Shown: positions 6,689 to 27,429 of the stretch, piece by piece
How positions within the stretch are numbered: position 1 is the stretch's first letter
Layout of the letters: each line of letters begins with the position of its first letter
Assembly (NCBI GenBank): GCA_022646745.1
Contig: CP060262.1
Location: 360,001-392,000 of the forward strand
Length of the DNA stretch: 32,000 bases
Origin: Planctomycetales bacterium
GTDB lineage: Bacteria > 4484-113 > JAFGCY01
Direction: 5' to 3'
Notes under the pieces: model-generated
The model's input: only the letters and a program-made list of their open reading frames with translations
What the model was told of the DNA's origin: nothing
Databases searched by the model: none
Made by a program: the position numbers and the translations under genes

Positions 6689-6698
6689 GCCCCTTCGT

Positions 6699-6704
6699 TA
6701 CAAT
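6699..6704 (+). promoter_or_regulatory. -10-like TACAAT placed 6 nt before ATG 6711 (possible leaderless transcript)
   Basis: TACAAT at 6699-6704, then CTGTAC, then ATG 6711. No Shine-Dalgarno is possible in this space. The -35 is weak (TTCGCT, 6676-6681). The same TACAAT-N6-ATG geometry occurs at 8585-8599. Confidence 0.35.
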
Positions 6705-6710
6705 CTGTAC

Positions 6711-7535: not shown

Positions 7536-7541
7536 AGGAGC

Positions 7542-7709: not shown

Positions 7710-7733
7710 AGACTTCCGTCTGAGCTCTGCGCG

Positions 7734-8483: not shown

Positions 8484-8584
8484 TTACAAAGTCTATCGAG
8501 ATTCCCTTTGCCCGCAGCAAAGTCCCGGCCAAGTCCGGATATGCAATCGGTGAAGCGGCATGCCTGATGAGCCCCACTCCCCAC

Positions 8585-8590
8585 TACAAT
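8585..8590 (+). promoter_or_regulatory. -10-like TACAAT 6 nt before ATG 8597 (possible leaderless MFS transcript)
   Basis: TACAAT at 8585-8590, then TAGCCG, then ATG 8597. There is no room for a Shine-Dalgarno and no convincing -35. Confidence 0.3.
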
Positions 8591-8596
8591 TAGCCG

Positions 8597-9936: not shown

Positions 9937-10752
9937 CTACTCCCACTCCGGGTATTCGATCAGCACATCGCGCAGCTTCCTGTACTCCACGCCGTTGCGC
10001 GGCCAGTTGACAAGCGCTGCCCAGCGCGTGTCCTGCGGCGGGGCCAGCAGGTTGTCACCCTTCGCGCTGTCAAAGGCCGGGTTGATCCAGCAGTGCCACC
10101 AGGGGAAGTCCGCCGTCTCCTCCGGCCCCAGCTCGCCGGCCGCCACGCTGTCCCGCAGGGCCAGGAGCCCGCGCGAGGCATCCGTCGTGCCGCCCTCGCT
10201 GCAGTGCGCGCTCGTAGCCCGGCGGTACAGCAGCCAGGCCAGCGGGTAGTTGCCCTTCTGCCCGTTCGTGGCCTGCACCACCCAGCTGAGCACCGCCTCC
10301 GCCTGGTCCAGCGCGCCATGTTCCAGAAGCGCAATCCCCTCATGCAGGCGGTGCAGCCAGTGCTCCGGCTCCAGCAGTGCGGCACGCGAAAATGCCAGCG
10401 CGGCCTCCTCATACTGCCGGTTGGCAGCGAAGGCGCTGCCAAGCTTGAACCAGGCCACGGCGAACTCGATCGCGCCGGAGGCGATGCACTGCTGGTAGCA
10501 CTGCACGGCGTCGAGGATGCGCCGCTGGTCGAAGAAGGCATCTCCGCGCAGCATGTAGACCACGTCGTCACTGCTCCGGGTGCCAAGCGCGATCAGCTCA
10601 TCGGTCAGCCCGATCAGCCCGGCGCTGTCACCCTGCTCCATCAGTGCGCGGGCCTTCTCAAACAGCGCCTGCACCGCAGGGGACTCATCGGCGAAGGGCT
10701 GCTCATCACCCAGCGGCTGCGCGTTGCCAGTTTCAGGATCGTTGGTGTGCAC
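9937..10752 (-). CDS. TPR-like repeat protein
   Basis: 271-aa ORF with a GTG start as listed, so the start is uncertain. The helical repeat pattern has A/L/Y/W spacing typical of TPR, e.g. AWFKLGSAFAANRQYEEAALAFSRAALLEPEH. Overlapping ORFs are A/R/G-rich shadow frames. Confidence 0.6.
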   Translation of the reverse strand: MHTNDPETGNAQPLGDEQPFADESPAVQALFEKARALMEQGDSAGLIGLTDELIALGTRSSDDVVYMLRGDAFFDQRRILDAVQCYQQCIASGAIEFAVAWFKLGSAFAANRQYEEAALAFSRAALLEPEHWLHRLHEGIALLEHGALDQAEAVLSWVVQATNGQKGNYPLAWLLYRRATSAHCSEGGTTDASRGLLALRDSVAAGELGPEETADFPWWHCWINPAFDSAKGDNLLAPPQDTRWAALVNWPRNGVEYRKLRDVLIEYPEWE

Positions 10753-10773
10753 GGGGAAAGTATAGGGGAAGTG

Positions 10774-10952
10774 CTCAGTGGTCGGAAGTCAGTGGGCAGA
10801 AGCAGAATGAGAATGAGAATCAGAAGAAGAATCAGAATGAGGGGCAGGTTGGGAACCTTATGACTGACAACTAAGTTCTGCTGCTTCTGCTTCTGCTTCT
10901 GCTTCTGCTTCTGATTCTCTCCCTGACCACTGACCACTGGCTACTGACCACT
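10774..10952. repeat. Nested word palindrome A-B-centre-B'-A', same architecture as 2689-2844, including (CTGCTT)5
   Basis: A is 10774-10799, CAGTGGTCGGAAGTCAGTGGGCAG. B is 10800-10842, GAGAAT/CAGAAG/CAGAAT hexamer words. The centre is 10843-10875. B' is 10876-10922, with exact (CTGCTT)5 at 10881-10910. A' is 10923-10952, CTGACCACTGACCACTGGCTACTGACCACT. Confidence 0.85.
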
Positions 10953-10982
10953 AAAAAAAAAACGCCCCACCGAAGCGGGGCG
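10953..10982 (-). terminator. Intrinsic terminator of the rpsF-rpsR-rplI operon
   Basis: The minus strand reads CGCCCC-GC(TTCG)GT-GGGGCG followed by T10 (A10 at 10953-10962 on the plus strand). It has a 6-bp GC stem and a C(UUCG)G-type loop, about 70 nt downstream of the rplI stop. Confidence 0.8.
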
Positions 10983-11052
10983 TCCTTTGCGTTCAATTGT
11001 GTACCGGGCCGTTGATCAGAAGGCTGATCCCCGGTCCCTGGTCCCTGAGGAC

Positions 11053-11754
11053 TTATTCGTCCTCGGTCTCGTGGGCCTCGTACTTGTCCTGCGAGTCCTC
11101 GGCCTGGGCGGCGCCGTCGGCCTCAGCGCTGGCGGCGGGAGCTTCGTCCTCGTCCTCATGCGCCTCGCTGCCTTCGACGTACTCGCCATCGCCGTAGTCG
11201 GTCTCACGCTTGCGGGCCTTGCGGCGCTCATCGCGCTCGGCCTGGTCACGGGCCTCCTGCTCATCGCGGATCTTGTCCAGCAGCTCCTGCTCGAAGTCAC
11301 TGGACTTGCGCAGGGGCTCGATCACGACCTTGATCTTGCCGGTCACGTCAGCGCCGGCACGCAGCTCGACCTCGAATTCACCGAGCTGCTTGATCGGCTC
11401 ATCCAGGTGGATGTGGCGACGCTCGACATCCACGTCATGCTGGATCTTGATCTCATCCGCGATCATCGCGCTGGTCACGGCACCGAACAGACGGTTCTCC
11501 GTGCCGCTCTTCATCGCGATCACGATCTGCTTCTCGGCGAGGAAGTCGAACTTGTCGTTGGCTTCCTTCATGCGGCGGGCCCGCTTGGTCTCAGCGGCGC
11601 GCTTGATCAGCTTGATGCGGTTGACCGCGTCCTTGGTGGCCAGCTCCGCGTAGCGCTTCGGGATCAGCCAGTTGCGCGCGTAGCCGTTCTTCACTTCAAC
11701 TATGTCTCCGGCGACGCCGACATTGACGACATCGTCCAACAGAACAACCTTCAT
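11053..11754 (-). CDS. rplI: 50S ribosomal protein L9 with an 86-aa acidic/charged C-terminal extension
   Basis: The N-terminus MKVVLLDDVVNVGVAGDIVEVKNGYARNWLIPKRYA matches the conserved L9 N-domain. The canonical fold ends near residue 147 (KIKVVIEP). Residues 148-233 are E/D/R/K/A-rich low complexity. Confidence 0.9.
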   Translation of the reverse strand: MKVVLLDDVVNVGVAGDIVEVKNGYARNWLIPKRYAELATKDAVNRIKLIKRAAETKRARRMKEANDKFDFLAEKQIVIAMKSGTENRLFGAVTSAMIADEIKIQHDVDVERRHIHLDEPIKQLGEFEVELRAGADVTGKIKVVIEPLRKSSDFEQELLDKIRDEQEARDQAERDERRKARKRETDYGDGEYVEGSEAHEDEDEAPAASAEADGAAQAEDSQDKYEAHETEDE

Positions 11755-12413: not shown

Positions 12414-12443
12414 ATTATAACACAGGTTGCAGGGAGCTGGGAA
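12414..12443 (-). promoter_or_regulatory. Candidate sigma70-type promoter of the rpsF operon with extended -10
   Basis: The minus strand reads TTCCCA (reverse complement of 12438-12443), an 18-nt spacer ending in TGT, then TATAAT (reverse complement of 12414-12419). This gives a perfect -10 with an upstream TGn. Confidence 0.4.
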
Positions 12444-12481
12444 CAGGGATCAGTAGCGGCGACACTCCTGTCGCCGGTAAA

Positions 12482-12986
12482 GGTTGGAGTTTGGAGTGGG
12501 GAGTTTGGAGGAGCCGGAGGTGCGCAACTTGTTTGCGCACAATGCAGCGCTGGGACAGTCTGGATAGTTCGAATAGTAGGAATAGTGGAAGAAGTTGTTA
12601 GTAGCTTAGTTCTTAGTAGCGGTGCCCTCGCCGCTAGGGAGGCCCGATGTCAGTCGGGCAAAAGGCAGAAGGCAAAGGGCAGAAGGCAGGGTTCGGAGGT
12701 GCGCAATCACGCCGTGGGCGTGACGCACAATACAGCGCTGGACGGGAGCCGTAGGGCAAGGCCACCCTGCCTTGCTCAGGAGGTCATTATCCACGCACTG
12801 CATCCGGCGGCTGTGAGCTGCCGCTACGGTCAAACACCTTAACTATCAATACTATTCCAACTATTCAAACTGTTCTGTACGGCTGGCACCAGCCAGCCTG
12901 GGCAATGCCCGGTGTGTGGCTCTTAGAGCCACAAGGCCCTGTAGCTCTAAGAGCTACACTCCCTCAAACCTGAACCCTCCTTCCCT
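12482..12986. repeat. ~500-nt non-coding mosaic with nested inverted word arrays and several hairpin modules
   Basis: Outer arms are the GGAGTTTGGAG words (12482-12511) against CACTCCCTCAAACCTGAACCCTCC (12957-12986). Inner arms are the GAATAGT/TTAGTAGC words (12562-12620) against AACTATCAATACTATTCCAACTATTCAAAC (12837-12877). Inside are two copies of CGGAGGTGCGCAA-hairpin-GCACAAT.CAGCGCTGG (12515-12555, 12694-12743), a GGCAAAAGGCAGAAGG array (12657-12691), and the hairpins GTGGCTC-TTA-GAGCCAC (12916-12932) and GTAGCTC-TAA-GAGCTAC (12941-12957). Confidence 0.8.
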
Positions 12987-13154: not shown

Positions 13155-14117
<963 letters not shown>

Positions 14118-14118
14118 G

Positions 14119-15297
14119 ATGCGCATCCTGCTGCGAGCATGCATCCTGCTGACCTGCCTTGCTGCCACATGGCTGGCGGGCAGTGTGCAGGCGACCGCGG
14201 CACCGAGCAACCTCTACTTCATTGACGACTTCAGCGGCGAAAGCGGCACCTATTTCTACAGCGGCCAGCTGGACGAGCGCCGCTTCGGCTATGACAAGGG
14301 CCAGTACCGCATCGACACCAGCGGCAGCGAGGCCTACGGCCAGAGCGTGCTGCTGGAGGACCTCGAGGAGTACAGCGTGGAGGTCAGCGCGCAGCTCCTG
14401 GACTCCAGCGACAAGGACGGCGGCGGCTTCGGCATCAGCTTCAACTACAACGAGCGCCAGGGCGGCTCGGACTTCATGCTGTTCCTGATCTACAACCGCG
14501 GCGCCTTCGCCGTGCTGCGCTACAAGGATGACAAGACGAGCGTCGTCACCAGCCCGCAGCTGACCGACCTCGTCAAGCCCGGCAAGCCCGTGCAGCTCGG
14601 GGTTGACAACACCCGCGGCCAGCTGACCTTCTACATCAACGGCGTCGAGGTGCATTCGCTGAAGGAGACGCAGCTCACGCGCGGCGGCTTCGGGATGTTC
14701 GCCACCCGGCGCAGCCTGGTGCAGTATGACGACTTCAAGGTGTTCGCCGACCGCCCGACGCCAAAGATTTTCAAGGACGACTTCTCCACAGATGCCAGCT
14801 TCTACAAGGGCAGCTATGGCGAGGTGGAGTACTACTACCGCGACAAGCGCTACTACATCAACACGCTGGACACGCAGTACATCGGGCTCTCGCCCTTCCC
14901 GGAGAAGGCGATGAACTTCGACCTCAGCGTCGACGTGGAGCTGGTGCAGGGTGAGCCGCAGGGCGGCTACGGGATCTACATCCGCGACTGGGAGACGGGG
15001 GGAGGCGGCTTCAACCAGTTCCGCTTCCTGGTAGCCGACGGCTGGTACGCGATTGAGCAGAGCGTGGAGGACCGCCCGCTGGCGCTGTCACAGTGGACGC
15101 AGCATAGCGCGGTGCGCCTGACTGGGGTGAACCGCCTGCGGGTGGTGGCCCAGGATGGGAAGCTCAGCTTCTTCATCAACGGGGTGGAGGTCTACAAGCA
15201 CACCGACGACATGCCGCACATGGGCGACTTCGGCCTGTATGCGGCGGGGGGCGTCGAGGTGGCGTTTGACAACCTCGAATTTCTGCCGCTGCAATAG
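14119..15297 (+). CDS. Secreted protein with two tandem jelly-roll (concanavalin/LamG-like) domains, function unknown
   Basis: I prefer ATG 14119 (MRILLRACILLTCLAATWLAGSVQA, a signal peptide) over the listed GTG 14107, which would overlap the upstream gene. Internal duplication: both halves share DDFS...Y...G.Y.I, GG.GI, G.L.F.INGVEV and ..D.F.V. The fold assignment is by pattern only. Confidence 0.7.
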   Translation: MRILLRACILLTCLAATWLAGSVQATAAPSNLYFIDDFSGESGTYFYSGQLDERRFGYDKGQYRIDTSGSEAYGQSVLLEDLEEYSVEVSAQLLDSSDKDGGGFGISFNYNERQGGSDFMLFLIYNRGAFAVLRYKDDKTSVVTSPQLTDLVKPGKPVQLGVDNTRGQLTFYINGVEVHSLKETQLTRGGFGMFATRRSLVQYDDFKVFADRPTPKIFKDDFSTDASFYKGSYGEVEYYYRDKRYYINTLDTQYIGLSPFPEKAMNFDLSVDVELVQGEPQGGYGIYIRDWETGGGGFNQFRFLVADGWYAIEQSVEDRPLALSQWTQHSAVRLTGVNRLRVVAQDGKLSFFINGVEVYKHTDDMPHMGDFGLYAAGGVEVAFDNLEFLPLQ

Positions 15298-15412
15298 TGG
15301 TCAGTAGTCAGTGGTCGGTGGTCAGATTGCCCTGCCAACTGCTTGATCCCTTGATACTTTTTCAGTGTTAGAGAAAGCCAGCCTATATCAGTGGTCAGTA
15401 GTCAGTGGTCAG
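15297..15412. repeat. Two direct GTGGTCA/GTAGTCA heptamer arrays (15297-15325, 15389-15412) flanking a 63-nt spacer
   Basis: GTGGTCAGTAGTCAGTGGTCGGTGGTCAG begins inside stop codon TAG 15295-15297. CAGTGGTCAGTAGTCAGTGGTCAG is at 15389-15412. The inverted partner is at 15869-15895. Confidence 0.85.
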
Positions 15413-15428
15413 ATCAACCCGCTTTTCG

Positions 15429-15812
15429 CTAACCCTTCTGGTTACCAGGCATTGAAGCAGCAACCTTATTCCTGACTGAGTAAAGCAATCTGCAAGTCTC
15501 GTCCAACAACCTGTAGGCATCAGCAAGGTTTCTGCCGGAAACGTAGCCAAGCTTCTGGGAAACAAACAATAGCGTGTCCAGCTCCCTTGCGGATCCCAAA
15601 GCCATTGAAAGAAAGTGGGCGTAGTCCCTGGCTGTTGACCTCGCATTGCCCTCAGCGATGTTTGCCGGAATTGACACTGCAGCTCTTTGGATCTGTGAAC
15701 TAATTCCATAAATTTCCCGGCGAGGGAATCCTTCCGTCAGGCCATAAACCGACTCAACCAGCTCAACAGCCCTCTGCCATACGATCAAATTCCTGTGGGA
15801 TGCCTTTGTCAT
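15429..15812 (-). CDS. Four-helix-bundle protein (23S rRNA intervening-sequence protein / Avd-like family)
   Basis: 127 aa from ATG 15810-15812. The sequence NLIVWQRAVELVESVYGLTEGFPRREIYGISSQIQRAAVSIPANIAEGNARSTARDYAHFLSMALGSARELDTLL matches the conserved pattern of this family (W..A..L...vY..t..fP..E.y.l.sQirRAa.SI..NIAEG..r.s..d...fl.iA.GS..El.t.l). It is visibly lower in GC than the flanking genes. The upstream ATGs in the ORF track lie beyond the predicted promoter. Confidence 0.85.
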   Translation of the reverse strand: MTKASHRNLIVWQRAVELVESVYGLTEGFPRREIYGISSQIQRAAVSIPANIAEGNARSTARDYAHFLSMALGSARELDTLLFVSQKLGYVSGRNLADAYRLLDETCRLLYSVRNKVAASMPGNQKG

Positions 15813-15821
15813 AACAAATGA

Positions 15822-15850
15822 ATAGTACAATAAATATTGACTTCTGTCAA
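15822..15850 (-). promoter_or_regulatory. Sigma70-like promoter of the four-helix-bundle gene, giving a near-leaderless transcript
   Basis: The minus strand reads TTGACA (reverse complement of 15845-15850), 17 nt, then TACTAT (reverse complement of 15822-15827), then 9 nt to the ATG. The -35 is embedded in the palindrome ATTGAC-TTCT-GTCAAT. Confidence 0.5.
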
Positions 15851-15868
15851 TCATTTTTTTGTCTTTAT

Positions 15869-15895
15869 TGACCACCGACCACTGACCACTGACCA
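15869..15895. repeat. TGACCAC heptamer array, inverted partner of 15297-15412
   Basis: TGACCACCGACCACTGACCACTGACCA is the reverse complement of the GTGGTCA word family. Together with 15389-15412 it brackets the four-helix-bundle gene and its promoter. Confidence 0.85.
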
Positions 15896-18026: not shown

Positions 18027-20405
18027 ATGAGATACGGCAGACAGATGATCGCCATGCTGCTTTGCGCAGTGCTGGCCCTGGCATCCTGCGGCGGCAATGC
18101 ACGCCCAGGCGATGCAGCGCTGGAAGCAGCAGTGTCCCCGCAGGCCACACTCAGGCTCGACGGACTGGAGCTGCTGGATGGCAGCATGCTGGACGAAGCA
18201 GGCTCCCGTGGCATCAGCGTGCAATGGTCCGATGTCAATGGCCAGCCCGTGGCCAGCATCCTTGCCGAGGGCGTGCAGGACCTGCGCGCGCTGTACTTCT
18301 CTCTTGAGCATGACAATACCCTGCAGGCCGGGGCATTCACGGCCGGCGACTGGGCGGCTGGCAACAGCCTCAGCCTGGCCCTCACTCCAGAGGCAGGGCA
18401 CAGCGAGGCCGGTATTGTGCTTGTCAATCCTGAGGGTGGCGATGGCTTCAGCGGCAGCGGGGTGCTGGCAACGCTTGCCTTCGATGCAGCTGGCAGAAAC
18501 CCCAAATCCGCCAGTGCTGCGCCGAACACGGAAGCCTCGCGCATGCAGCTCTACTTCGCGCCCGACTTCGGCCTGCTGTACTGGTACTACCGCAACCAGG
18601 GTGACTATGACCAGAACGGCGAGGTGAACATCTCCGACCTGACCCCGCTGGCAATCCACTTCGGCAAGGCCGCCGCCGGCGGAAGCTTTGACTTCACGAA
18701 GGTCGAATCCGTGGTGGACGGCGATGGCAACGGGGAGATCAACATTTCCGACATCTCACCGATCGGCGCCAACTTCGGCAACTCCGTGCAGGATTTCAAT
18801 CTCTATTTCGGCACGATGGTTGACTACCCCGCCAACCCCGGCGACACGCCGGGCGGGCTGGAGATCGAGAGCTGGCCGCTGGCCGATGCATCGGGGGAGG
18901 CTGCCTCCCAGCGGCTGTACTTCACGAAGCAGCTGCCGATCATGGTCCCGGTGGCCAGCGGGCTGTGGCTGCATCCGGTCAGCGGCAGCTCGATCGGCAT
19001 CGCCAGTACCTCAGTCGGCTTCGGCAACCAGTCGCCGCAGGTCCAGCTGCAGGCGGCACCGCTCACCGGAGTGGCCCCGTTCAGTGTCAGCGCGGATGGC
19101 AGCGCATCCAGCGACCCCGATGGCGACCCGCTGTCCTACACCTGGGTGTTCGGTGACCTGACGGCGCTGTACACCAGTGACGCCCTGTACAACCCGGCTG
19201 ACATGGGAGCGCAGTTCAGCGTGGACGTGGAGGCGGGGGGCGAGTACGTGCTGATCCTGATGGTGCGCGACCCGCAGGGCGCAGTGGCCTTCCAGGTGCA
19301 GGATGTGGTGGCGGTTGACAGCGCCGGCTGGCAGATCCGCGAGTTCGACGTGACCGGGAACCACCCCACGCTGGAGACGATCTTTGACGTGGACGTCTGC
19401 GAGGTGGCCGGGCTGCCGACGATCGCCTACGCCTACAAGCAGGGCGCCACCGGCGGGCACGTCTACCTGCTGCAGGGGGATTCCCTGTTCGATGGCGACT
19501 GGGACATTGACAATTTCGTTTACGGGCAGAGCGGCACGGACTTCTGCGAGGTGGCGGTGGCTGAGATTGACGGTACTGCGGCTGTGGCGGCGTCCTACGA
19601 CCGCGGTGGCAACGGTGAGGCGGTGTTCGCGCGCCAGGTCGAGAGCGGCGGGACGGACATGTACAACACCGTGCTGTTTGAGCAGTCCACCGGCGCGCTC
19701 AGCGGGGTCGACCTGGCGAACATCGACGGGCAGGCGATGGTCGCCTACCGCAACAATGCCACAGGTGAGCTGCGCTTCTGCGTGGCGATTGACGACAGTG
19801 CGCAGAACTTCGTCGGGCCGTTCAATGTCGGCATCACCGGCGCCCCGAGCTCGCAGATCTGCCTGGCGGAGGTGCAGGGTGCACCGGCCTTCAGCTACTG
19901 GGCCGGGCCATCCAGCAACCGCCTGCGTTACCACACCGCGGTGATGAACGGCCCGCTGCCGGTGTTCAACAGCGGCACCACGCTCGCCGTACTGACCAGC
20001 TGCTACCTTTCCGATGCACTGATCGTCAGGGAGGATGGCAGCCCCTCGGTGCTGTTTGACATCCCGGTGAACACGGCGATCTACGGCCTGCGCGCCGCCG
20101 ACCCGCAGGCCTCGATGTGGACCGCCGACGGCGAGATCTCGCAGCAGGGTGCGGCGATCGGCGAGTACTGCGCCGGGATGCATGGCGGCCGGCCGGCGAT
20201 CCTGTGGTACGACTTCCTCACCGCCGAGCTGTACTACCAGCGCGCGGCGGATGCCGATGGCACCAGCTGGGAAGCTGCCGTGCTGGTTGACGACAGCCTC
20301 GCACTGGGCACCCGGCCCTGCATGGCGGAAGTACTCGGCGTGCCGGTGATCGCCTACATCGACAAGGGCCGCAACATGATCTGCTACGGGATATACGTGG
20401 AATAG
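18027..20405 (+). CDS. Lipoprotein with cohesin-like, dockerin-like, PKD-like and Asp-box-variant propeller regions
   Basis: I prefer ATG 18027 (MRYGRQMIAMLLCAVLALAS-C-GG lipobox) over the listed GTG 18009. Cohesin-like segment at ~18130-18500 (..SGSGVLATLAFDA). Dockerin-like pair GDYDQNGEVNISDLTPLAIHFG / DGDGNGEINISDISPIGANFG at ~18598-18783. PKD-like segment (APFSVSADGSASSDPDGDPLSYTWVFGD). C-terminal ~50-aa repeats with G.P.IAY...L.Y.RAADADGTSW. Confidence 0.8.
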   Translation: MRYGRQMIAMLLCAVLALASCGGNARPGDAALEAAVSPQATLRLDGLELLDGSMLDEAGSRGISVQWSDVNGQPVASILAEGVQDLRALYFSLEHDNTLQAGAFTAGDWAAGNSLSLALTPEAGHSEAGIVLVNPEGGDGFSGSGVLATLAFDAAGRNPKSASAAPNTEASRMQLYFAPDFGLLYWYYRNQGDYDQNGEVNISDLTPLAIHFGKAAAGGSFDFTKVESVVDGDGNGEINISDISPIGANFGNSVQDFNLYFGTMVDYPANPGDTPGGLEIESWPLADASGEAASQRLYFTKQLPIMVPVASGLWLHPVSGSSIGIASTSVGFGNQSPQVQLQAAPLTGVAPFSVSADGSASSDPDGDPLSYTWVFGDLTALYTSDALYNPADMGAQFSVDVEAGGEYVLILMVRDPQGAVAFQVQDVVAVDSAGWQIREFDVTGNHPTLETIFDVDVCEVAGLPTIAYAYKQGATGGHVYLLQGDSLFDGDWDIDNFVYGQSGTDFCEVAVAEIDGTAAVAASYDRGGNGEAVFARQVESGGTDMYNTVLFEQSTGALSGVDLANIDGQAMVAYRNNATGELRFCVAIDDSAQNFVGPFNVGITGAPSSQICLAEVQGAPAFSYWAGPSSNRLRYHTAVMNGPLPVFNSGTTLAVLTSCYLSDALIVREDGSPSVLFDIPVNTAIYGLRAADPQASMWTADGEISQQGAAIGEYCAGMHGGRPAILWYDFLTAELYYQRAADADGTSWEAAVLVDDSLALGTRPCMAEVLGVPVIAYIDKGRNMICYGIYVE

Positions 20406-21191
20406 GGAGCAGGGAGCAGAGAGCTGAAAGCAGGGAGCAGGTTGGAGCTACCCGCTTCAGCGGTAATAACTCGCTTTGCTCGGTTAACATCGAGGTAGGT
20501 ATGCAGCGGTTATCCTGAGCGCTAAGGCGCGAAGACGCGAAGGAAAAGAAGACTTGGCAGACTCATTGCTCACTCTTCATTGCTCATTGCTTCGCTGCAT
20601 GCACTCCCAAGCGCACGCAGCGTGCGCCGCTACGTTGCTTTCATTCGAGAGGCAAAACATTATTGCCAATCTTCTCCGCGCCTCACTAAAACTCTGCGTC
20701 TCCGCGTCAAAAAAACCGGACTGGCGAGCACGAAGCTTCTCGCGCGGCTGCGTGCCACGCATCGGCTCGCTACACTCGGGCACTATGAGGAATCCATGCG
20801 AAGGTTTTGTCAACGCGGAGTCGCGGAGGAAGTCGGAGGTGCGCAACTTGTTTGCGCACAATGGAACGCCTCACATAAGCTCGGGTGACAGCGAGGAAGC
20901 ATTCCCGGTTTTCTTTAACACAGAGATTCACAGAGTTCCACAGAGGAATTCAATGTTCGTCAGGCTCATTGCTCACTCTTCATTGCTCATTGCTTCGCGG
21001 CATGCATACCCATTCGCTGCAGGGGACGTTCCGTCGGTGTCTGTGTTTTCTTCGTGTCTTCGTGACTTCGTGGTCAGTCCAGTGCTGTCATGGTCACGAA
21101 GGCACGAAGCGCAATCTGCTTGTTGCCAGGCCAGACTGCCATGCGGAATTCCTGGCATGCACTCCCAATTGCGCCGGGGGCGCACCGCTAC
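20406..21191. repeat. ~780-nt non-coding mosaic of shared repeat modules
   Basis: Modules in order:
- GGGAGCAG array, 20405-20445
- GCTAAGGCGCGAAGACGCGAAGGAA, 20521-20545
- CATTGCTCA array, 20562-20590
- GCATGCACTCCCAA-hairpin-CGCTAC, 20597-20633
- CTTCTCC..TCCGCGTCAA..GGCGAGCA module, 20671-20756
- CGGAGGTGCGCAACTTGTTTGCGCACAATG, 20834-20864
- CACAGAG array, 20919-20946
- second CATTGCTCA array, 20965-20993
- inverted TTCGTG arrays, 21048-21073 and 21092-21112
- second GCATGCACTCCCAA-hairpin-CGCTAC, 21155-21191
The ORF-track entries here (20554-21375, 20885-21499 and others) translate repeat words. Confidence 0.8.
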
Positions 21192-21607
21192 ACCCCGACC
21201 GGCTGAGCTGCCTTCCCGTTGCCCATTCCATTCAGCCCGGCCAGTCCCTTCTCGGCCAGCTTTGCCAGCTCAGCCCTTTCCCACTCCGGGAACAGCCAGT
21301 CCGGCAGGCCCTTCAGGCAACGCAGGATGCTCGAGAGTTCGCTGGCCTTCTTCACGTTGCCAAGCTGCTCATTGAGCTTGTGGCGGATCAGCGAGGCCAT
21401 TTCCTTCACCCCCATGCGCTGGGCCAGCTGGTGGTGCTGCTTCATGCGGCGCAGCAGGTTGTGCTGGTCCTTGAGGATGGCGTGGGTCTCCGTGTCTGAG
21501 AAGCCGGCGGCCTTCAGCCCGGCCTGGTCCATGTTGCCTGAGCTGATCAGGCACCAAAGCAGCGCACGGATACAGGGGTCGTCATGCAGTTTCTGGCAAA
21601 GATCCAT
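21188..21607 (-). CDS. Small hypothetical protein (139 aa), possibly a helix-turn-helix protein
   Basis: I prefer ATG 21605-21607, preceded by GGGAGAGG (reverse complement of 21613-21620), over the listed upstream start. The segment LISSGNMDQAGLKAAGFSDTETHAILKDQ loosely resembles the HTH of phage small-terminase-like proteins (..gN..qAa..AGyS...a). The resemblance is weak and unverified. An AT-rich promoter island lies upstream. Confidence 0.55.
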   Translation of the reverse strand: MDLCQKLHDDPCIRALLWCLISSGNMDQAGLKAAGFSDTETHAILKDQHNLLRRMKQHHQLAQRMGVKEMASLIRHKLNEQLGNVKKASELSSILRCLKGLPDWLFPEWERAELAKLAEKGLAGLNGMGNGKAAQPVGV

Positions 21608-21698: not shown

Positions 21699-21752
21699 GT
21701 TTTTGCAAGGTTAATTGCTTGCTTTGTCATCCGCACCATAGCTTCGCCAGAT

Positions 21753-21782
21753 TTGACAGCAGGCAAACAGAAAGGGTATACA
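21753..21782 (+). promoter_or_regulatory. Sigma70-like promoter of the first tandem lipoprotein gene
   Basis: TTGACA at 21753-21758, an 18-nt spacer, TATACA at 21777-21782, then AAGGAA 7 nt before ATG 21810. The whole block is duplicated at 24556-24612. Confidence 0.5.
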
Positions 21783-21809
21783 TCGGGCATCTCCTGAAAG
21801 GAATATCCG

Positions 21810-24539
21810 ATGACTGCTTACTGCCTGCGAGTGCTGCCTGCCGGCCTGCTTGCTCTGCTTCTCGCCTCTTGTGGAGGATCCACAACGTCCCAGAGCCCCG
21901 CTTCCCTGCATGAAGCGGCATTGGAGCTGCCTGAGATGGCCGGAATTCAGTGGCCTGCGGAGCTGCCTGCGGATGCCCTGCAGCCCTGGGAACGGGAGGC
22001 CAGCGGCATCAGCGCGGAATCCGAATTCCTGCCGGGGCGCGAAGCCTTCAGCAGCAGCCTGGCGGGTGCCAGCGAGAACGGTGAGGCCACGCGGCTGGAA
22101 AGCAGCACAGGCCAGTCCGCATGGGCGAGCTACCGGATCCCCACGGGCGGCGAGGCCCCGGGAGTTCTATCACTCGACGTGAACCTGCTGGCGCCAGATG
22201 CAGGTGGTGCATCGGAATACTTCGTCGGGCTGGCAAACTACGGCACGGGCCGCTGGCAGTGGCGCGGGCCATTCTCCGACAGCCATGTGCGCCTTGCCCT
22301 GCCGGACAGCGGAATGCTCAGCCCGGTAAACAGCTTCTTCGCCACTGTGCTCTGCCACAGGGGCAGCCGGATTGACATCGTGGGACTTGGCCTCGGGATG
22401 CGGATTGCCGACGACAGCACAGCGCCGCCAATGCCAATCGCCCTGACCGCCACGCCCGTGGCCGGCGGTGCCGAATTGCAGTGGTTCCCCGTGCTTTCAG
22501 GCGACCTGGCGGGCTATGAGCTCTTCTGGGCCGGGCAGTCCTTCAGCAACCCGCAGTCCGCCGGAGTGCGTAACCTTGGCTACATCGAAGGAAGCACGCA
22601 CACGGTGCTCAGCGGACTGGGCGGCGAGACATTCCTGCGCATTCGCTCCGTGGACCTGAATGGCAACGCCAGTGAACTGTCGGACGAGGTTTCCTTCACA
22701 GCACTCGCCGGCTCCGGGCCCAGCCTGCTTGTCAGTGCGGGATCCGCCAGTGCCGGGCTTGGTGAGGCGGTCAGTGTCAGCGTGAGCGGGGCCGAAAGCT
22801 ACGACTACGACACGGATGGCAACGGTGATTTCGACATCACGGCTGACAGCTCCGGCAGCTTCAGTGTGGACACCAGCCGCCCAGGCATCATCCGCCCACG
22901 CGTGCGCGCCAGCGGCAGCGGTGGCGAAGCGGTGGCCCTGGGCTCGGTCAGCCTGATCGTCACCAGCAACTCGCGGCCCGTTGCCAGCGCCACGGCGGAC
23001 CCGCAGAGCGGCCTGGCGCCACTGGACGTGACATTCACGGGTGAGGCCGAGGATGCCGAGGATGAGCAAAGCGCGCTGGAATTCGCCTGGGACTTCGACG
23101 GTGACGGCATCTTTGAAGTGGGGACCGATACGCTGACGCCTCCGCTGCAGAACTATGCGTCCGCGGGCATCATCAACGCCAAGCTGCGGGTGACCGACAG
23201 CCAGGGTGCCTGGGACGTTGACACGATCTCCATCCTGGCAACGGATGGCGGTGTCCATGCCGAACTGGCAATGGCACAGAGCCTGATCGGCAAGGGCGAG
23301 TATGCCATCTTCAGCGCGGAATCCAGCACTTCCTCGTCAATGATCACCAAGTATGAATGGGACCTGGACGGCGACCTGGTTTTCGAACTGGACACGGGCT
23401 TGGACCCGCTGCTGAAGCGGAGCTTTGACACGGTCGGCTTCCAGCAGGTTGCGCTGCGGGTCACGGATGACCTGGGCCGCTTCGATATTGACATTGACAC
23501 GCTGGTGGTGGAGGGCTGGTCCGACCCGGCGGACGTACCCGGGACCACCGGTAGCTTCATCAGCTACAGCACAGAGGTGGCCGGCTTCCCGGCCATCAGC
23601 TATGGGAACTCAGGAACGAACCAGATGATGTTTATCCGGGCCCTGGACTGGCAGGGAACCGCATGGGGAACACCAGTCGGAATCGGGGAACCGGGGCTTG
23701 ATGTGTACTATCCCCGGATGATCATCGTCAATGGCAACCCGGCGGTGGTCTACAGCGGCATCTCGGACGAACAGCTGCACTACGTACGTGCGCTGGATGC
23801 TGAAGGCAGCAGCTGGGCGGCCCCGATGGTTGTCACGACGGATGTCAGTGAGTCGGACATCAAGGGCCTGATCGTCGCTGACGGCAACCCGGCCATCAGC
23901 TACAAGCGCAAGAGTGACGGCGCCCTGATGTACGTCCGGGCGGTCAATCCGGAGGGCAGTGCGTGGAGCGCGCCGCTGGTCGTGGACAACAGCACCTCAT
24001 ATGCCGGCAGTGACATGGAGATAGTCAACGGGCGTCCCTGCATCGCCGCACGCAAGCAGAGCCCCAGCGAGCTCCACTGGTTCAGGGCGGCGAATCCGCA
24101 GGGCAGCTCCTGGGGCGCAGCGGTGGTGGTTGACGATGTCAACGTGGCGGGCCTGTATGCCGACATCGTGGTCACGGGCGGGCGGCCGGGGATATTCTAC
24201 CTTGACAATGACACCATCAAGTGGGTCATGTTCTGCATTGCTTCCGACATAAATGGATCTGCCTGGGAAACGCCGGTGCAGCTTGACAATGGCAGCAATG
24301 CCAACTCAAACCATGGAGCAGCGGTGATAGACGGCCGGCCGGCCGTCGGCTACAAGAATCCCGCCTTCGGCACGATGTTCATCCAGGCCAAGGATGCCCT
24401 GGGAAGCGATTGGGAAGCGCCGCAGGTCGTGATCCCGGCGGAACATGGCTTTCCCCACATGTGTGCCGTGGCTGACAGGCCTTTCGTTGTGATCGCGGGT
24501 AACAGCGGCAGCCTGACTTTCACTAATTTCAGACCCTAG
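21810..24539 (+). CDS. Large lipoprotein: unknown N-domain, FN3-like, PKD-like repeats, C-terminal 6-7-blade Asp-box-variant propeller
   Basis: 909 aa. Signal plus lipobox LLLAS-C-GGS. FN3-like segment (PIALTATPVAGGAELQWFPVLSGDLAGYELFW...LRIRSVDLNGNASELSDEV). PKD-like segments (LAPLDVTFTGEA...FAWDFDGDGIFE...AKLRVTDSQGAWDVD and YEWDLDGDLVFE...VALRVTDDLGRFDID). C-terminal repeats of ~50 aa with G(N/R)PA(I/V).Y...L.Y(V/I)RA.(D/N)..G(S/T).W..P. Confidence 0.85.
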   Translation: MTAYCLRVLPAGLLALLLASCGGSTTSQSPASLHEAALELPEMAGIQWPAELPADALQPWEREASGISAESEFLPGREAFSSSLAGASENGEATRLESSTGQSAWASYRIPTGGEAPGVLSLDVNLLAPDAGGASEYFVGLANYGTGRWQWRGPFSDSHVRLALPDSGMLSPVNSFFATVLCHRGSRIDIVGLGLGMRIADDSTAPPMPIALTATPVAGGAELQWFPVLSGDLAGYELFWAGQSFSNPQSAGVRNLGYIEGSTHTVLSGLGGETFLRIRSVDLNGNASELSDEVSFTALAGSGPSLLVSAGSASAGLGEAVSVSVSGAESYDYDTDGNGDFDITADSSGSFSVDTSRPGIIRPRVRASGSGGEAVALGSVSLIVTSNSRPVASATADPQSGLAPLDVTFTGEAEDAEDEQSALEFAWDFDGDGIFEVGTDTLTPPLQNYASAGIINAKLRVTDSQGAWDVDTISILATDGGVHAELAMAQSLIGKGEYAIFSAESSTSSSMITKYEWDLDGDLVFELDTGLDPLLKRSFDTVGFQQVALRVTDDLGRFDIDIDTLVVEGWSDPADVPGTTGSFISYSTEVAGFPAISYGNSGTNQMMFIRALDWQGTAWGTPVGIGEPGLDVYYPRMIIVNGNPAVVYSGISDEQLHYVRALDAEGSSWAAPMVVTTDVSESDIKGLIVADGNPAISYKRKSDGALMYVRAVNPEGSAWSAPLVVDNSTSYAGSDMEIVNGRPCIAARKQSPSELHWFRAANPQGSSWGAAVVVDDVNVAGLYADIVVTGGRPGIFYLDNDTIKWVMFCIASDINGSAWETPVQLDNGSNANSNHGAAVIDGRPAVGYKNPAFGTMFIQAKDALGSDWEAPQVVIPAEHGFPHMCAVADRPFVVIAGNSGSLTFTNFRP

Positions 24540-24555
24540 CAAGGCCTGCAACCAT

Positions 24556-24585
24556 TTGACAGGGGCAAAGCAGAAAGGGTATACA
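24556..24585 (+). promoter_or_regulatory. Sigma70-like promoter of the second tandem lipoprotein gene (duplicate of 21753-21782)
   Basis: TTGACA at 24556-24561, an 18-nt spacer, then TATACA at 24580-24585. The TTG start used by the ORF track at 24556 is the first three bases of this -35 hexamer. Confidence 0.5.
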
Positions 24586-24612
24586 TCAGGCATCTCCTGC
24601 AAGGAATATCCA

Positions 24613-27429
24613 ATGTCTGCTTACTGCCTGAGACTGCTGCCTGCCAGCCTGCTTGCCATGCTTCTTGCCTCTTGTGGAGGGTCCACAACCGTCCAGAGCC
24701 CTGCTTCCCTACCGGTCGAGAAAGCGGAGCTGCCTGAGATGGCCGGAATGCAGAGGCCTGCGGAACTGCCTGCGGATGCAGTGCAGCCCTGGGAACGGGA
24801 GGCGAGTGGGATCAGCGCGGAGTCGGAATTCCTGCCGGGGCGTGAAGCCTTCAGCACCAGCCTGACCGGAGCCAGTGAGAACGGTGAGGCCACCCGGCTG
24901 GAAAGCAGTTCCGGCCAGTCCGCCTGGGCCACATACCGGATCCCCACGGGCGGGGAAGCACCGGGAGTGCTCTCGCTGGATGTCAACATGCTGGCCCACT
25001 CCGATGCCGGCCTGTCGGAATACTACGTGGGAGTTGCCAACTACGGCACGGGCCGCTGGCAGTGGCAGGGTCCCTTTTCAGACAGCCACGTGCGCCTCGC
25101 CCTACCGGAGAACGGCGCGCTCAGTTCCGTGAACAGCTTCTTCGCCACCCTGCTCTGCCACGGTGGCAGCAATGTTGATATCGTGGGAGTCGGCCTCGGG
25201 ATGCGCAATGCGGATGACAACACACCGCCACCAGTGCCGATCGCCCTGACCGCCACGCCCGTGGCCGGCGGTGCCGAATTGCAGTGGTTCCCCGTGCTTT
25301 CAGGCGACCTGGCCGGCTATGAGATCTTCTGGTCCAGCCAGACCTTCTCGGCAGTGGAAGATGCCGGCGTGCGCAGCCGGGGCTGGATCGAGGGCAGCAC
25401 CCATACAGTACTGACAGGGCTGGCAGGAGAGACATTCATACGTGTGCGTTCTGTTGACCACAATGGCAACGCCAGTGAGTTTTCCGATGAGGTGGCAGTC
25501 ACTCCGCTGGTCGGAGCAGCCCTGCCCCTGCTCGTCAGTATTGACAGTGTCAGCAGCGGAGTGGGCGATCCCATCAGCATCACAGTGAGCGGGGCGGACA
25601 GCTATGACTATGACACGGATGGCAACGGCGTGTTCGACATCACCGGTGATGCAGGCGGCAGCTTCTCGGTTGACACATCGCAGCCCGGCATCATCCGCCC
25701 ACGGGTGCGGGCCAGCGGCAGCGGCGGGGAGCGGGTGGCACTGGGCTCCGTCAGCCTGATCGTCAGCAGCAACTCGCGGCCCGTTGCCAGCGCCACATCC
25801 GACAAGTCCGTGGACTACCTGGACTATGGCGGTTTCCAGGATGCGGCAATCACCTACACTGGTATTGCCGAGGACCAGGAGGACAGTGAGGAACAGCTCA
25901 GTTTCGCCTGGGACTTCGATGGCGACGGCATATACGAAGCGGATACGGATACACTGGCACCCGGCACGGTGCAGTACGACACGCCTGGTTCATATAACGT
26001 GAAGTTCCGGGCCACCGATTCCGCCGGTGCCTGGGATGTGGACACGCTCAACATTGACATCCGCATCAACCAGCCGCCGGTGGTGTACATTTCCGGTCCC
26101 AACAGGCTGTACCTGATGCCTGATGGCATCACGATCTTCAACAACTACTCCGTCACGGCCATGAATCCCGAAGGTGAGGAGGAGCTGAACTTCTACTTCG
26201 ATGAAGATGGCGATGGCAACCATGAGCAGACTGACACGGATGAGGAGAGTGCCAGCTTCGGTGTCACCTATGAGCGAGCCGGGCTCTATCCGGTGAGGGT
26301 CGAGGTGTACGACAGCAGGGGAGCTGCGGGGGTTGCCCAGATGATGGTGGAGGTCTACAACCATTCCCCGACCCGCGTGGAGACGGGAGCGCTTGACGGC
26401 ATCTCCAGTTCGCTGGTCGGCTTCCGGGGCGGCATCGCCCTCGCCTACCGCGACGGACTCGCTGATGAGCTGGAATTCATGTTCAGCCATGACAGCAGCG
26501 GCACGAACTGGACGGAGCCCCTGGTGCTCTCGGGAGCGGATGTCTGCAGCGGCCAGGTCAGCATCATGGCGGATGCCGGCGAGAATTACCTGGTGATCAC
26601 CTACAAGGATGAAACCACCGGAGACCTGCGCTTTGTGGAGAAGGATAGCGTGAACGGCGGCGGTGCCTGGACGGCACCTGCCTCGATTGACAGCGGACCG
26701 CAGTATGGGATCTATAACTCGCTGGTATTCAACGAGGACCTGTTCCGCTTCGGCTGCTTCTACTATGACGAGGACAATGGCGACCTGCTCTATGTACAGG
26801 CCACCAATGACAAGGGTACGTCCTGGGGCACACCCGTGAACGTGGTGTCCAACGCCGATGACACGGGGCAGTACTGCTCGGCGCAGATCGTGGATGGCAA
26901 CCCTGCGGTCTGCTACTACAACGTCTCGGACCAGGACCTGGAGTACATCCGCGCCGATGATGCCAACGGAACCAGCTGGGGCGCGATCATCGACGCCCAC
27001 AGTGTCAATGGCGAGGACGTCGGTGTGAACTGCCGTATGGCGCTTGGCCGCATCGGCTTTCCGATCATCGCCTTCAACAACCTGACAACCAACCGCATCC
27101 ACTACATCCGTTCCAACAATGCCCAGGGATCCAGCTGGGCCTACGACGACGGCGACCCGCTGGCGAACCTGAGCGGCGGGGACGGTTCTCTGTGCATCGG
27201 ATTCGATGGCACCCGCGCCTTTGCCGCGATGCACGTGAACGGGAAACTGTGGGTTTCGCAGGCCTTCTCCTTCAACAACACAAATTGGACCCCGGCCCGC
27301 CTGATTGACGATGACGACAGCGACAATGTCGGGCTCAACCCGGCGGTGGCCCTTGTGAACGGCCGCTATGTCGTGAGCTACTTCGACGAGGACAGCGGGG
27401 ACCTGAAGGTGCTGCTGCCCCGTTACTGA
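24613..27429 (+). CDS. Large lipoprotein, tandem paralog of 21810-24539 with an extra PKD-like module and a divergent propeller
   Basis: 938 aa from ATG 24613 (MSAYCLRLLPASLLAMLLAS-C-GGS). The first ~400 aa are closely similar to the upstream paralog, including a 74-nt identical DNA run (25240-25313 = 22437-22510). The C-terminal repeats carry SHDSSGTNW, ATNDKGTSW, ADDANGTSW and SNNAQGSSW. Confidence 0.85.
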   Translation: MSAYCLRLLPASLLAMLLASCGGSTTVQSPASLPVEKAELPEMAGMQRPAELPADAVQPWEREASGISAESEFLPGREAFSTSLTGASENGEATRLESSSGQSAWATYRIPTGGEAPGVLSLDVNMLAHSDAGLSEYYVGVANYGTGRWQWQGPFSDSHVRLALPENGALSSVNSFFATLLCHGGSNVDIVGVGLGMRNADDNTPPPVPIALTATPVAGGAELQWFPVLSGDLAGYEIFWSSQTFSAVEDAGVRSRGWIEGSTHTVLTGLAGETFIRVRSVDHNGNASEFSDEVAVTPLVGAALPLLVSIDSVSSGVGDPISITVSGADSYDYDTDGNGVFDITGDAGGSFSVDTSQPGIIRPRVRASGSGGERVALGSVSLIVSSNSRPVASATSDKSVDYLDYGGFQDAAITYTGIAEDQEDSEEQLSFAWDFDGDGIYEADTDTLAPGTVQYDTPGSYNVKFRATDSAGAWDVDTLNIDIRINQPPVVYISGPNRLYLMPDGITIFNNYSVTAMNPEGEEELNFYFDEDGDGNHEQTDTDEESASFGVTYERAGLYPVRVEVYDSRGAAGVAQMMVEVYNHSPTRVETGALDGISSSLVGFRGGIALAYRDGLADELEFMFSHDSSGTNWTEPLVLSGADVCSGQVSIMADAGENYLVITYKDETTGDLRFVEKDSVNGGGAWTAPASIDSGPQYGIYNSLVFNEDLFRFGCFYYDEDNGDLLYVQATNDKGTSWGTPVNVVSNADDTGQYCSAQIVDGNPAVCYYNVSDQDLEYIRADDANGTSWGAIIDAHSVNGEDVGVNCRMALGRIGFPIIAFNNLTTNRIHYIRSNNAQGSSWAYDDGDPLANLSGGDGSLCIGFDGTRAFAAMHVNGKLWVSQAFSFNNTNWTPARLIDDDDSDNVGLNPAVALVNGRYVVSYFDEDSGDLKVLLPRY

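Follow-up and report, generated by a model that had tools for sequence, protein, structure and literature searches.

A spacer of 786 nt, located at positions 20406-21191 between two convergent genes, was analyzed in a 32,000-nt stretch of DNA (contig CP060262.1 of assembly GCA_022646745.1, positions 360,001 to 392,000 of the forward strand; this whole stretch is called the window). The spacer is free of genes; it is bordered on one side by the gene of a PKD-domain protein and on the other side by a gene encoding 139 amino acids, and it is composed of short repeats whose nature and origin are considered here. The region 20300-21300 was found with 100% identity in five metagenome assemblies (L001-L005; loci outside the window carry L numbers) and with one mismatch in a further one (L006). 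These six assemblies are independent and derive from different samples. The locus is fixed at population level, and its identity across all six assemblies shows that it is no assembly artefact.

Public gene callers annotate an open reading frame (ORF) of 273 (or 258) amino acids across the mosaic, at 20554-21375 and in L001-L006. Its translation is a repeat peptide of the HCSLL/LIAHSSLLIA type, its coding score is negative, and it belongs to no family; this ORF is a spurious protein in public catalogues. The ORFs of the spacer showed coding log-odds of -0.2 to -0.5 per codon and a GC content at third codon positions (GC3) of 0.54-0.61, as compared to log-odds of +0.2 to +0.68 for nearly all called genes and a GC3 of 0.84 for both flanking genes. 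A Pfam search with all spacer ORFs of at least 70 amino acids gave no match. Hence, the prediction that the spacer harbors no credible ORF held. The annotated 273-aa ORF could nevertheless be taken to indicate a decayed gene, and the contigs of related genomes that end inside such mosaics (L010 at its start, L019 and L020 as contigs of about 1 kb) could point to repeat mis-assembly; evidently, the repeats fragment short-read assemblies of this lineage. We regard both explanations as very improbable: besides the negative coding score, low GC3 and missing family matches, a tblastn search detected no remnant of the REP-associated tyrosine transposase (RAYT; REP, repetitive extragenic palindromic) which some relatives carry at this site (see below), and the six assemblies agree except for the single mismatch in L006.

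A scan for tRNA and tmRNA genes gave none. Rfam 15 had no match in the window at the gathering threshold and none at E ≤ 1 within 20300-21300. Scanning of the spacer revealed no sigma-70-type promoter, no canonical terminator, and a single terminator-like match within chance expectation; candidate -35/-10 boxes in a CGCTAC motif or in a dispersed repeat termed element X were dropped, as their spacing was inconsistent and the scan did not match them. Furthermore, the spacer folds better than shuffled sequences on both strands (z-scores of -5.2 and -4.6). Its repeat families are dispersed and form hairpins, and the mosaic that they compose is non-coding (Table 1).

All seven module types named in the original prediction were recovered at their predicted places, far above chance. 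Within the window, the 27-mer CATTGCTCA(C/G)TCTTCATTGCTCATTGC has five matches (6501, 6649, 13329, 20564, and 20967; 0 expected). Three copies each were found of GCATGCACTNCCA (20597, 21155, and 31774; 0.02 expected), always followed by a hairpin and CCG(C/G)TAC (family D14), and of CGGAGGTGCGCAA (12515, 12694, and 20834; 0 expected). Identical copies of GCTAAGGCGCGAAGACGCGAAGG are located at 20521 and 31516. That almost every segment is a module seen elsewhere was overstated; about 30-40% of the spacer recurs by sequence and more only at the level of families. Of the spacer, 23% is covered by exact 12-mers that also occur elsewhere in the window, or 41% when internal repeats and 11 related loci are included, and BLAST at E ≤ 1e-3 covers 29% as compared to 0% for coding controls that are neither paralogous nor orthologous. 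The rest comprises structural families, diverged copies, or unique sequence.

Table 1. Features of the spacer and of related places in the window (window positions; D numbers designate repeat families; TRF, Tandem Repeats Finder).
Feature	Position	Strand	Remarks
Gene of the 792/798-aa PKD-domain protein	TAG stop codon 20403-20405	+	Upstream border of the spacer
Heptamer array (AGGGAGC)x5.4	20404-20441	+	TRF; abuts the TAG stop codon of the 792-aa gene
GGAG-headed weak hairpin GGAGCTACCCGCTTCAGCGGTAAT	20443-20468	+	Unit also at L011 4326-4349 and 4374-4396
Octamer array GCTAAGG(CGCGAAGA)n	20519-20545	+	TRF row 20520-20542
CATTGCTCA heptamer array, copy 1	20561-20591	+	Families D4 and D7
GTAG-headed REP-like element GTAGCGG-CGCACG-ctg-CGTGCG-CTTGGGAGTGCATGC	20597-20633	-	D14; 7-bp perfect stem
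Element X, dispersed repeat of about 150 nt	20634-20790	-	Core GCAGnCGCGCGnG..GTGCTCGCCnGTCnGGTTTnnTTGACGCnGA
GGAG-headed REP-like hairpin CGGAGG-TGCGCAA-cttg-TTGCGCA-CAATG	20834-20863	+	z-score -3.3
Decamer array (CACAGAGnnn)x2.7	20919-20945	+	TRF
CATTGCTCA heptamer array, copy 2	20964-20994	+	Repeat search and TRF
GCATGCA box without hairpin, TTCGCGGCATGCATACCCA	20995-21012	+	Truncated copy of the flank at 20592-20609; D4, 81% identity
Inverted octamer-array pair (TCTTCGTG)3 / (CACGAAGG)2	21049-21110	.	TRF; hairpin of about 17 bp
GTAG-headed REP-like element GTAGCGG-TGCGCC-ccc-GGCGCA-ATTGGGAGTGCATGCC	21155-21191	-	D14
139-aa gene	21188-21607, stop codon 21188-21190	-	Downstream border of the spacer
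Tandem composite unit, 2 x 148 nt	6371-6666	+	TRF, 148-nt period; outside the spacer
D8 doublets	6384-6444, 6532-6592, 12910-12970 (also delimited as 12906-12969)	third copy -	Outside the spacer
PF05635 four-helix-bundle ("23S rRNA IVS protein") gene	about 15432-15812, locus 15295-15895	-	Pfam 2e-34; TIGR02436
Second mosaic	31501-31930	+	Same modules, same order; 73% over 315 nt to L011; outside the spacer

Four hairpins with a conserved head alternate in orientation along the spacer, at 20443 (+), 20633 (-), 20835 (+), and 21191 (-), with recurring arrays and boxes between them; all four are single units, none is a doublet. The first is the weakest member, having four perfect stem pairs and folding no better than shuffled sequences (z-score -0.7), while further copies of the hairpin at 20834-20863 were found in L017 (twice) and at L025 2196. 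The TAG within the GTAG head at 21188-21191 is at the same time the stop codon of the 139-aa gene; in a sister genome (L019), the homolog of this gene ends otherwise, with TGA. At 20590-20640 on the minus strand, the 3' arm of the REP hairpin can alternatively pair with a GGGAGTGCATGC box; the resulting 13-bp stem is the minimum-energy fold there and was not observed in the copy at 21148-21195. Element X carries a hairpin resembling the REP that flanks RAYT genes. At 31811-31930, one copy of it follows a GCATGCA module, and another is part of the orthologous sister-genome spacer (L019 880-1000); Rfam gave no match to it.

The arrays of the spacer recur as well. Further copies of the AGGGAGC family (D18) are located at 12424-12453 and at 1542-1571, where the array again immediately follows a stop codon; 1594-1612 is occupied by a complementary array, and similar arrays were found in L013 and L017. 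A diverged copy of the GCTAAGG octamer array is present at L011 4447-4470; in type, this array is complementary to the TTCGTG arrays. The CACAGAG array at L011 4768 holds the same position relative to the CATTGCTCA module as in the spacer, and complements of it were found at 31662-31686 and L011 4585. Within the inverted pair, (TCTTCGTG)3 at 21049-21072 faces (CACGAAG)2 at 21095-21110, resulting in one hairpin with a DNA folding energy of -19.1 kcal/mol (z-score -4.9); CTTCGTG repeats similar to the TTCGTG arrays are located downstream of the RAYT gene in L025.

Sequence of the lineage was sampled to about 150 kb, corresponding to about 3% of a genome, in loci picked for an exact 30-mer of the CATTGCTCA module and with home-made gene calls. 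This 30-mer was found in 11 stretches of a species-level genome collection, namely in eight contigs of the metagenome-assembled genome (MAG) UBP7 HKST-UBA01 (JAGRNR01) and in one each of HKST-UBA03, AC1.30 (JAWLAZ01), and a Bacteroidales bin. One HKST-UBA01 contig (L010) is 94.3% identical to window positions 6638-9804; therefore, the window derives from a close relative of HKST-UBA01. Other modules recur in L011, L013, L015-L017, and L025. L011 harbors at 4273-5017 a spacer of 745 nt that repeats these modules, in part with matching order, and shares 82% identity over 107 nt with window positions 20918-21024; the match between its positions 4432-4732 and the second mosaic of the window covers 31501-31810. 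This second mosaic consists of a GCTAAGG array, hairpins, a CTCTGTG array, GCATGCACTACCA-hairpin-CCGGTAC, and element X, in this order.

The likeness of the spacer to other places might reflect nothing else than a local history of duplication within the 32-kb stretch, as several modules have their only exact copies there, for example, GCTAAGGCGCGAAGACGCGAAGG. However, the modules are present on many contigs of at least three MAGs, at least eight of these contigs from HKST-UBA01 alone, and in non-orthologous loci; furthermore, the D8 doublet flanks a RAYT gene on an unrelated metagenome contig. The modules are thus not confined to the window, and a purely local origin has a next to negligible probability. 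The 27-mer was absent from viral contigs and had a single match (L018) among metagenome contigs of the Joint Genome Institute; therefore, no sign of phage origin or wide environmental spread was obtained. Spacers of 300-1000 nt are common in the lineage. In the more distant relatives L021 and L023, spacers are short, arrays are few, and intergenic GTAGCGG hairpins are missing; hence, the comparison of related genomes, which the original prediction had proposed, indicates a lineage-specific expansion of the mosaic.

Perfect hairpins (stem ≥6, loop 3-7) occurred at 5.4 per kb in intergenic and 1.8 per kb in coding DNA, and about 60 intergenic hairpins with a GGAG head and about 20 with a GTAG head were found in the sampled 150 kb. 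The words GGAG or GTAG 5' of the stem (or CTCC/CTAC 3' of it) accompanied 49 of 110 intergenic hairpins as compared to 14 of 110 in the wrong-orientation control. A hairpin followed GGAG in 7.1% of cases and seven control words in 2.1-5.2%, the top control word, GAGG, overlapping the head. In the REP-like unit, a conserved head, GGAG(G) or GTAGCGG, is followed by a GC-rich, 5-8-bp hairpin and a conserved 3' flank, (C)AAT or AYTGGGAGTGCATGC. The module originally described as GCATGCACTCCCA-hairpin-CGCTAC reads on the other strand as GTAGCGG-[6 bp]-CYY-[6 bp]-AYTGGGAGTGCATGC. Nine GTAGCGG copies of the same geometry vary on both sides at six of six stem pairs, which are 100% paired, between invariant flanks; as these copies were pre-selected for a hairpin, the selection itself accounts for part of the pairing percentage but not for the stem diversity. 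The predicted pattern of conserved flanks enclosing different stems was thus corroborated by compensatory changes in all six stem pairs.

A larger family, GGAGG-[stem]-[loop]-[stem']-(C)AAT, includes the CGGAGGTGCGCAA module, and the subfamilies of this family are common to the window and AC1.30 (for example, GGAGGCCCGATGTCAGTCGGGCAA at window position 12638 and L025 2171). Small subfamilies of two to six identical stems are present in the sample; otherwise, the stems under one head are diverse. GGAGG is the commonest head, and its complement CCTCC closes units of opposite orientation (7537-7671, 3525-3551, and 31256-31280; L025 2083-2220). For many units, the start is only a few bases away from a stop codon (TAGGAGG, TGAAGGAG). 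Of the 18 GGAG hairpins located in convergent spacers, 14 have sense orientation to the nearer gene, often 3-30 nt past its stop codon. Doublets of the REPIN type (REP doublet forming hairpins) exist as D8, with the structure GGAG-hp1-AGGGCC(T)T-hp2 (hp, hairpin), and as GGAG-hp-AAAT-hp-CTCC at L015 6374-6423 and L014 971-1019. The hairpin families have REP architecture. They comprise a palindrome with conserved 5' and 3' flanks, dispersed extragenic copies, REPIN doublets, and an alternating cluster like that of bacterial interspersed mosaic elements (BIMEs); a palindrome sequence shared within one REP family was not found.

Homologs of the 139-aa gene led to related genomes. In L021, a gene encoding 197 amino acids (10535-11128) is located directly downstream of the 139-aa homolog, at the position occupied in the window by the spacer. 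Its product passes the NCBIfam equivalog NF047646 (REP-associated tyrosine transposase) with 91 bits at a cutoff of 80; the HUH (HVH) and Y motifs are both present. Upstream of this RAYT gene are five hairpins in tandem, GGAGCGCGA(A/G)CATT(C/T)AG(C/T)TCGC, and downstream of it is an inverted copy. AC1.30 likewise carries a RAYT gene downstream of the 139-aa homolog (L025 3001-3600), with three hairpins on each side, and HKST-UBA02 (L023) has none at this site. A REP of the RAYT-flanking type, GGAGCGCGAGCATTCAGCTCGCC, is also dispersed (L011 6381 and L014 6136).

Four RAYTs of one clade (L021, L025, L033, and L034) reached 88-97 bits on NF047646, and all four are flanked by inverted GGAG-headed hairpins. 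The gene in L034, a short metagenome contig, is flanked by inverted GGAGCGCGCGTCTTCAGACGCGC. L033 is another short metagenome contig from the same activated-sludge series as L001-L006; on both sides of its RAYT gene, the doublet GGAG-TGTAGCTC..GAGCTACA-GGGCC(T)T-hairpin is found. This is the D8 module of the window, the third copy of which reads GGAG-TGTAGCTC..GAGCTACA-GGGCCT-TGTGGCTC..GAGCCACA, and it is also the doublet in the L019 version of the spacer. REP/REPIN systems are defined by a RAYT gene that has inverted copies of a dispersed palindrome on its flanks (PMC3337134, PMC5581495). RAYTs of the lineage and of its community are flanked by members of the hairpin families of the spacer.

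The repeats differ between relatives by whole units. Each 148-nt unit at 6371-6666 combines the D8 REPIN doublet, an AGCAATGAG array, a loop, and an (inverted) CATTGCTCA array. The ortholog in HKST-UBA01 (L010 1-130) is 94% identical on both sides and lacks about 275 nt of these units, and judged from this comparison the difference is a clean insertion/duplication polymorphism. The L019 spacer, located downstream of a 139-aa gene of 82% identity, shares only element X and the GTAG hairpin with the window and contains a D8 doublet instead; therefore, about 400 nt of the window mosaic are lineage-specific additions. This homology was spotted by eye and then confirmed, a MAFFT alignment being unworkable because of rearrangement. 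Between close relatives, units are gained and lost. No transposase of an insertion sequence was found in the window. Miniature inverted-repeat transposable elements were considered and rejected, as no consistent termini or target duplications were found for the 148-nt unit, element X, or an element of about 300 nt.

The spacer is probably a BIME/REPIN-type accumulation of non-coding hairpin repeats, for which the gap between convergent genes is a harmless place. The idea of a BIME-like mosaic of dispersed modules is supported by the REP-type heads (GGAG and GTAG) and by the RAYT genes flanked by inverted copies in relatives. A RAYT, which is an HUH/Y1 transposase, would copy the REP-like units via single-stranded DNA, recognizing the head and the shape of the hairpin rather than the sequence of its stem. 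Arrays would grow by replication slippage, and whole composite units would be duplicated or inserted together, insertions doing no harm in convergent spacers and therefore gathering in them. REP clusters such as those bordering the RAYT gene at the same position in relatives may be the ancestors of the mosaic; faint hints in this direction come from the hairpin of element X and from the CTTCGTG repeats that follow the L025 RAYT gene. Additionally, the hairpins may act as 3'-end structures of the transcripts of the flanking genes, in termination or in protection against 3' exonucleases. Such a role is plausible by analogy with E. coli REPs, since hairpins are located after stop codons, no promoter was found, and the terminator-like match is within chance expectation. 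We infer both a mobilization in the source genome and a role at the RNA level.

Several observations weigh against the BIME/REPIN interpretation. By tblastn, no RAYT gene or remnant was detected in the window or in about 85 kb of its closest relatives, and no homolog more than 56% identical to the L021 RAYT could be tied to HKST-UBA01; only the metagenome series ties the L033 RAYT to the source. The GTAG-headed class, which includes the GCATGCA module of the original prediction, is linked to none of the four RAYTs. On the sequences compared here, the diversity of stems under one head is the main departure from classical REPs, and units often form direct tandems (L025 2083-2220, L021 10404-10506) rather than inverted doublets. 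GGAGG is also the Shine-Dalgarno word, so that the heads could be enriched partly for a different reason. The statistics moreover depend on the gene calls and the choice of loci described above. Finally, the tandem arrays, which make up about 10% of the intergenic DNA, are unexplained by RAYT activity.

Element X is conserved in the L019 version of the spacer and is present twice in the window, the spacer folds better than shuffled sequences on both strands, and the hairpin stems covary. The spacer might therefore encode structured RNA, either as one or several non-coding RNAs or as long 3' untranslated regions, for example, element X together with the next hairpin, and RNA function instead of DNA mobility would then conserve the repeats. 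This appears unlikely to us: no Rfam family was matched even at E ≤ 1, the spacer has no sigma-70-type promoter, and the units stand in either orientation to genes and in 5', 3', and convergent spacers. Furthermore, the covariation term is about zero with three copies of element X, and palindromic DNA repeats give structure on both strands anyway.

Tandem arrays numbered 65 in 20.3 kb of intergenic DNA (3.2 per kb as compared to 0.54 per kb in coding DNA) and accounted for 9.7% of the intergenic bases; 38 of the 65 have a period of 7, and the window contains at least a dozen different array units. The units measure 7-10 nt, in most cases 7-8 nt. Inverted array pairs form long hairpins at 1548-1626 (z-score -6.7), 21040-21115 (-4.9), and 31355-31460 (-3.2). 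In a strict test, an inverted partner within 200 nt was found for 8 of 52 intergenic arrays. A nested long hairpin at 10775-10952, between two minus-strand genes, has (AGTGGTC..)/(CTGACCA) outside and (CAGAAT)/(CTGCTT) inside.

Within the window, a PF05635 gene of foreign composition is located between inverted (AGTGGTC)n and (TGACCAC)n arrays, the inverted repeat (I13) being 96% complementary. A Bacteroidales bin (L009, CAIYUC010000178.1, 39% GC) carries the 27-30-nt CATTGCTCACTCTTCATTGCTCATTGC array of the UBP7 lineage, once exactly and twice with one or two mismatches (3515-3583, 6466-6541, and 6968-7056), including an array hairpin of 85 nt. At L009 6466-7056, a PF05635 gene has this array, the 27-mer occurring twice in the spacer, on both sides; a 69%-identical homolog in another Bacteroidales genome (L042 1428-1950) keeps (AATGAGC/AATGAAC)n arrays on both sides. 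Named close homologs of the L009 protein all belong to Bacteroidota or Ignavibacteria, none to the UBP7 lineage. Among 13 plasmid homologs from Cyanobacteriota, Gemmatimonadota, and Alphaproteobacteria (L026-L031, L035-L041), an array of period 7 or 8 is located upstream in all 13 and a complementary one downstream in 11, with a different array unit at nearly every locus; altogether, the arrangement was seen in five phyla, and several PF05635 loci lie inside operons (cas6-cas4, cas10-cmr3, and the beta and alpha genes of ribonucleotide reductase). In 50 kb of Anabaena pANA02, three of five period-7 arrays are found within 1 kb of a PF05635 gene. PF05635/TIGR02436 proteins are relatives of Avd, a protein of diversity-generating retroelements, and the array unit would be specific to a gene lineage and conserved with it, as in Bacteroidales at 69% protein identity.

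These findings raise the question of whether the arrays of 7-8 nt, and perhaps the array hairpins, form a separate system of PF05635 genes instead of being by-products of slippage. The flanking arrays in the window, L009, L042, the plasmids, and pANA02 all argue for such a system, yet the approximately 150 kb of the lineage contain one such gene as compared to 65 intergenic arrays, few arrays have an inverted partner close by, the loops of gene-less array hairpins are unlike the ends of the gene cassette, and the lineage provided no close homolog of the L009 protein. Moreover, slippage alone makes heptamer arrays according to the proposal of Mrazek et al. 2007, as cited in PMC4679880. Overall, we consider a separate system possible, though doubtful. 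The gene-less arrays of the spacer could, with the same reserve, be empty arms, former or potential insertion sites, or sites of binding or RNase III action. They would then, on what is a tentative suggestion, represent the gene-less side of a widespread and apparently undescribed partnership of PF05635/TIGR02436 genes and arrays in at least five phyla. PMC3936711 treats these genes in cas loci without mentioning arrays; our literature search was incomplete, and an earlier description is possible.

Some further genes of the window contain repeats. A DUF3108 gene ORF (13167-14117) runs through GAGCAAT, CATCCCG, CTCATTG, and TCCTGC arrays (13155-13390) before an obvious signal peptide; an overlap between the 5' end of this gene and the CATTGCTCA module is possible. 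A look-up of the exact 521-aa biotin carboxylase sequence gave no entry. Two PKD-domain genes (21810-24539 and 24556-27429) are tandem paralogs with a constant offset of 2803 nt; they are 71-86% identical over long stretches (21751-23233 and 24554-26054), and the 792-aa and 876-aa genes share repeats with them.

The spacer belongs to a known kind of bacterial repeat mosaic, of which it is an unusually rich example. The REPs and BIMEs of E. coli, as far as Gilson et al. 1991 are cited in PMC3337134, are likewise extragenic, favor 3' ends of genes and convergent spacers, and consist of GC-rich imperfect palindromes with a conserved 5' head which alternate among short motifs over several hundred bases. 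In contrast to E. coli BIMEs with their GTAG head, the lineage mostly has a GGAG(G) head, diverse stems, and units in direct tandem, and its mosaics contain many kinds of tandem arrays of 7-10 nt, which E. coli BIMEs are without. BIMEs are further characterized by specific binding of IHF, DNA gyrase, or DNA polymerase I and by transcription attenuation or mRNA stabilization; in this respect, the evidence from the lineage is positional, namely hairpins 3-30 nt past stop codons. With the REPIN-RAYT systems of Pseudomonas and enterobacteria (Bertels and Rainey 2011, PMC3116915, PMC3337134; Bertels et al. 2017, PMC5581495), it shares the HUH and Y motifs, the inverted REP or REPIN copies flanking RAYTs (L021, L025, L033, and L034), the doublet of two hairpins with a conserved linker (D8), and the presence or absence of whole units between related genomes. 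Unlike these systems, which have one to three hairpin subfamilies, the lineage has many, and the cognate RAYT was not found in the sampled source sequence. In the UBP7 literature found, no such REPIN-RAYT system is described for this uncultured candidate phylum.

BOX elements of Streptococcus pneumoniae have three fixed modules in fixed order and no known transposase. The mosaic resembles BOX and similar repeats in being non-coding, dispersed, and hairpin-forming, with modular boxes in variable number and order, but it has many more module types, no definable terminal inverted repeats or target duplications, and a link to RAYTs. Short tandemly repeated repetitive (STRR) sequences are heptanucleotide tandem repeats; the name was coined for cyanobacteria, to which the lineage does not belong. 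TAACTGA heptanucleotide repeats are common to Beggiatoaceae, Cyanobacteria, and Bacteroidetes (MacGregor 2015, PMC4679880). As in STRR and TAACTGA repeats, period 7 dominates, the arrays are almost exclusively intergenic and occupy many loci, and one motif occurs word for word in another phylum (L009). Unlike them, at least a dozen units instead of one or few are present in one genome, arrays abut stop codons and REP-like hairpins, some are inverted pairs, and no preference for positions just upstream of start codons was found. Finally, the PF05635 locus of the window resembles the intervening sequences (IVS) of 23S rRNA with a PF05635 ORF (Ralph and McClelland 1993, as cited in PMC3936711) in having a small gene inside long-stem inverted repeats, whereas its stems are heptamer arrays, the sites are intergenic or in operons, and the spacer has no such gene.

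REP and REPIN-RAYT systems have been studied mainly in Proteobacteria, and a related system is found here in an uncultured candidate-phylum lineage of activated sludge. In this variant, the GGAG head, highly variable stems, and clusters in direct tandem occur together with heptamer arrays of a dozen kinds. The sequences suggest that RAYT-type recognition may rest on head and shape rather than on the sequence of the stem; if so, the lineage provides a natural data set for the substrate needs of RAYTs. In addition, the mosaics break metagenome assemblies and yield spurious gene calls such as the 273-aa ORF. The PF05635 observation could tie long-unexplained heptamer repeats to a protein family. 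If it holds, the arrays would be cognate sites for protein binding or for an RNase III-type excision of cassettes from host transcripts, like that of rRNA intervening sequences; the UBP7 genome would be one in which such sites proliferated alongside REPINs, and cyanobacterial STRR sequences and similar "orphan" heptamer repeats would gain a partner protein.

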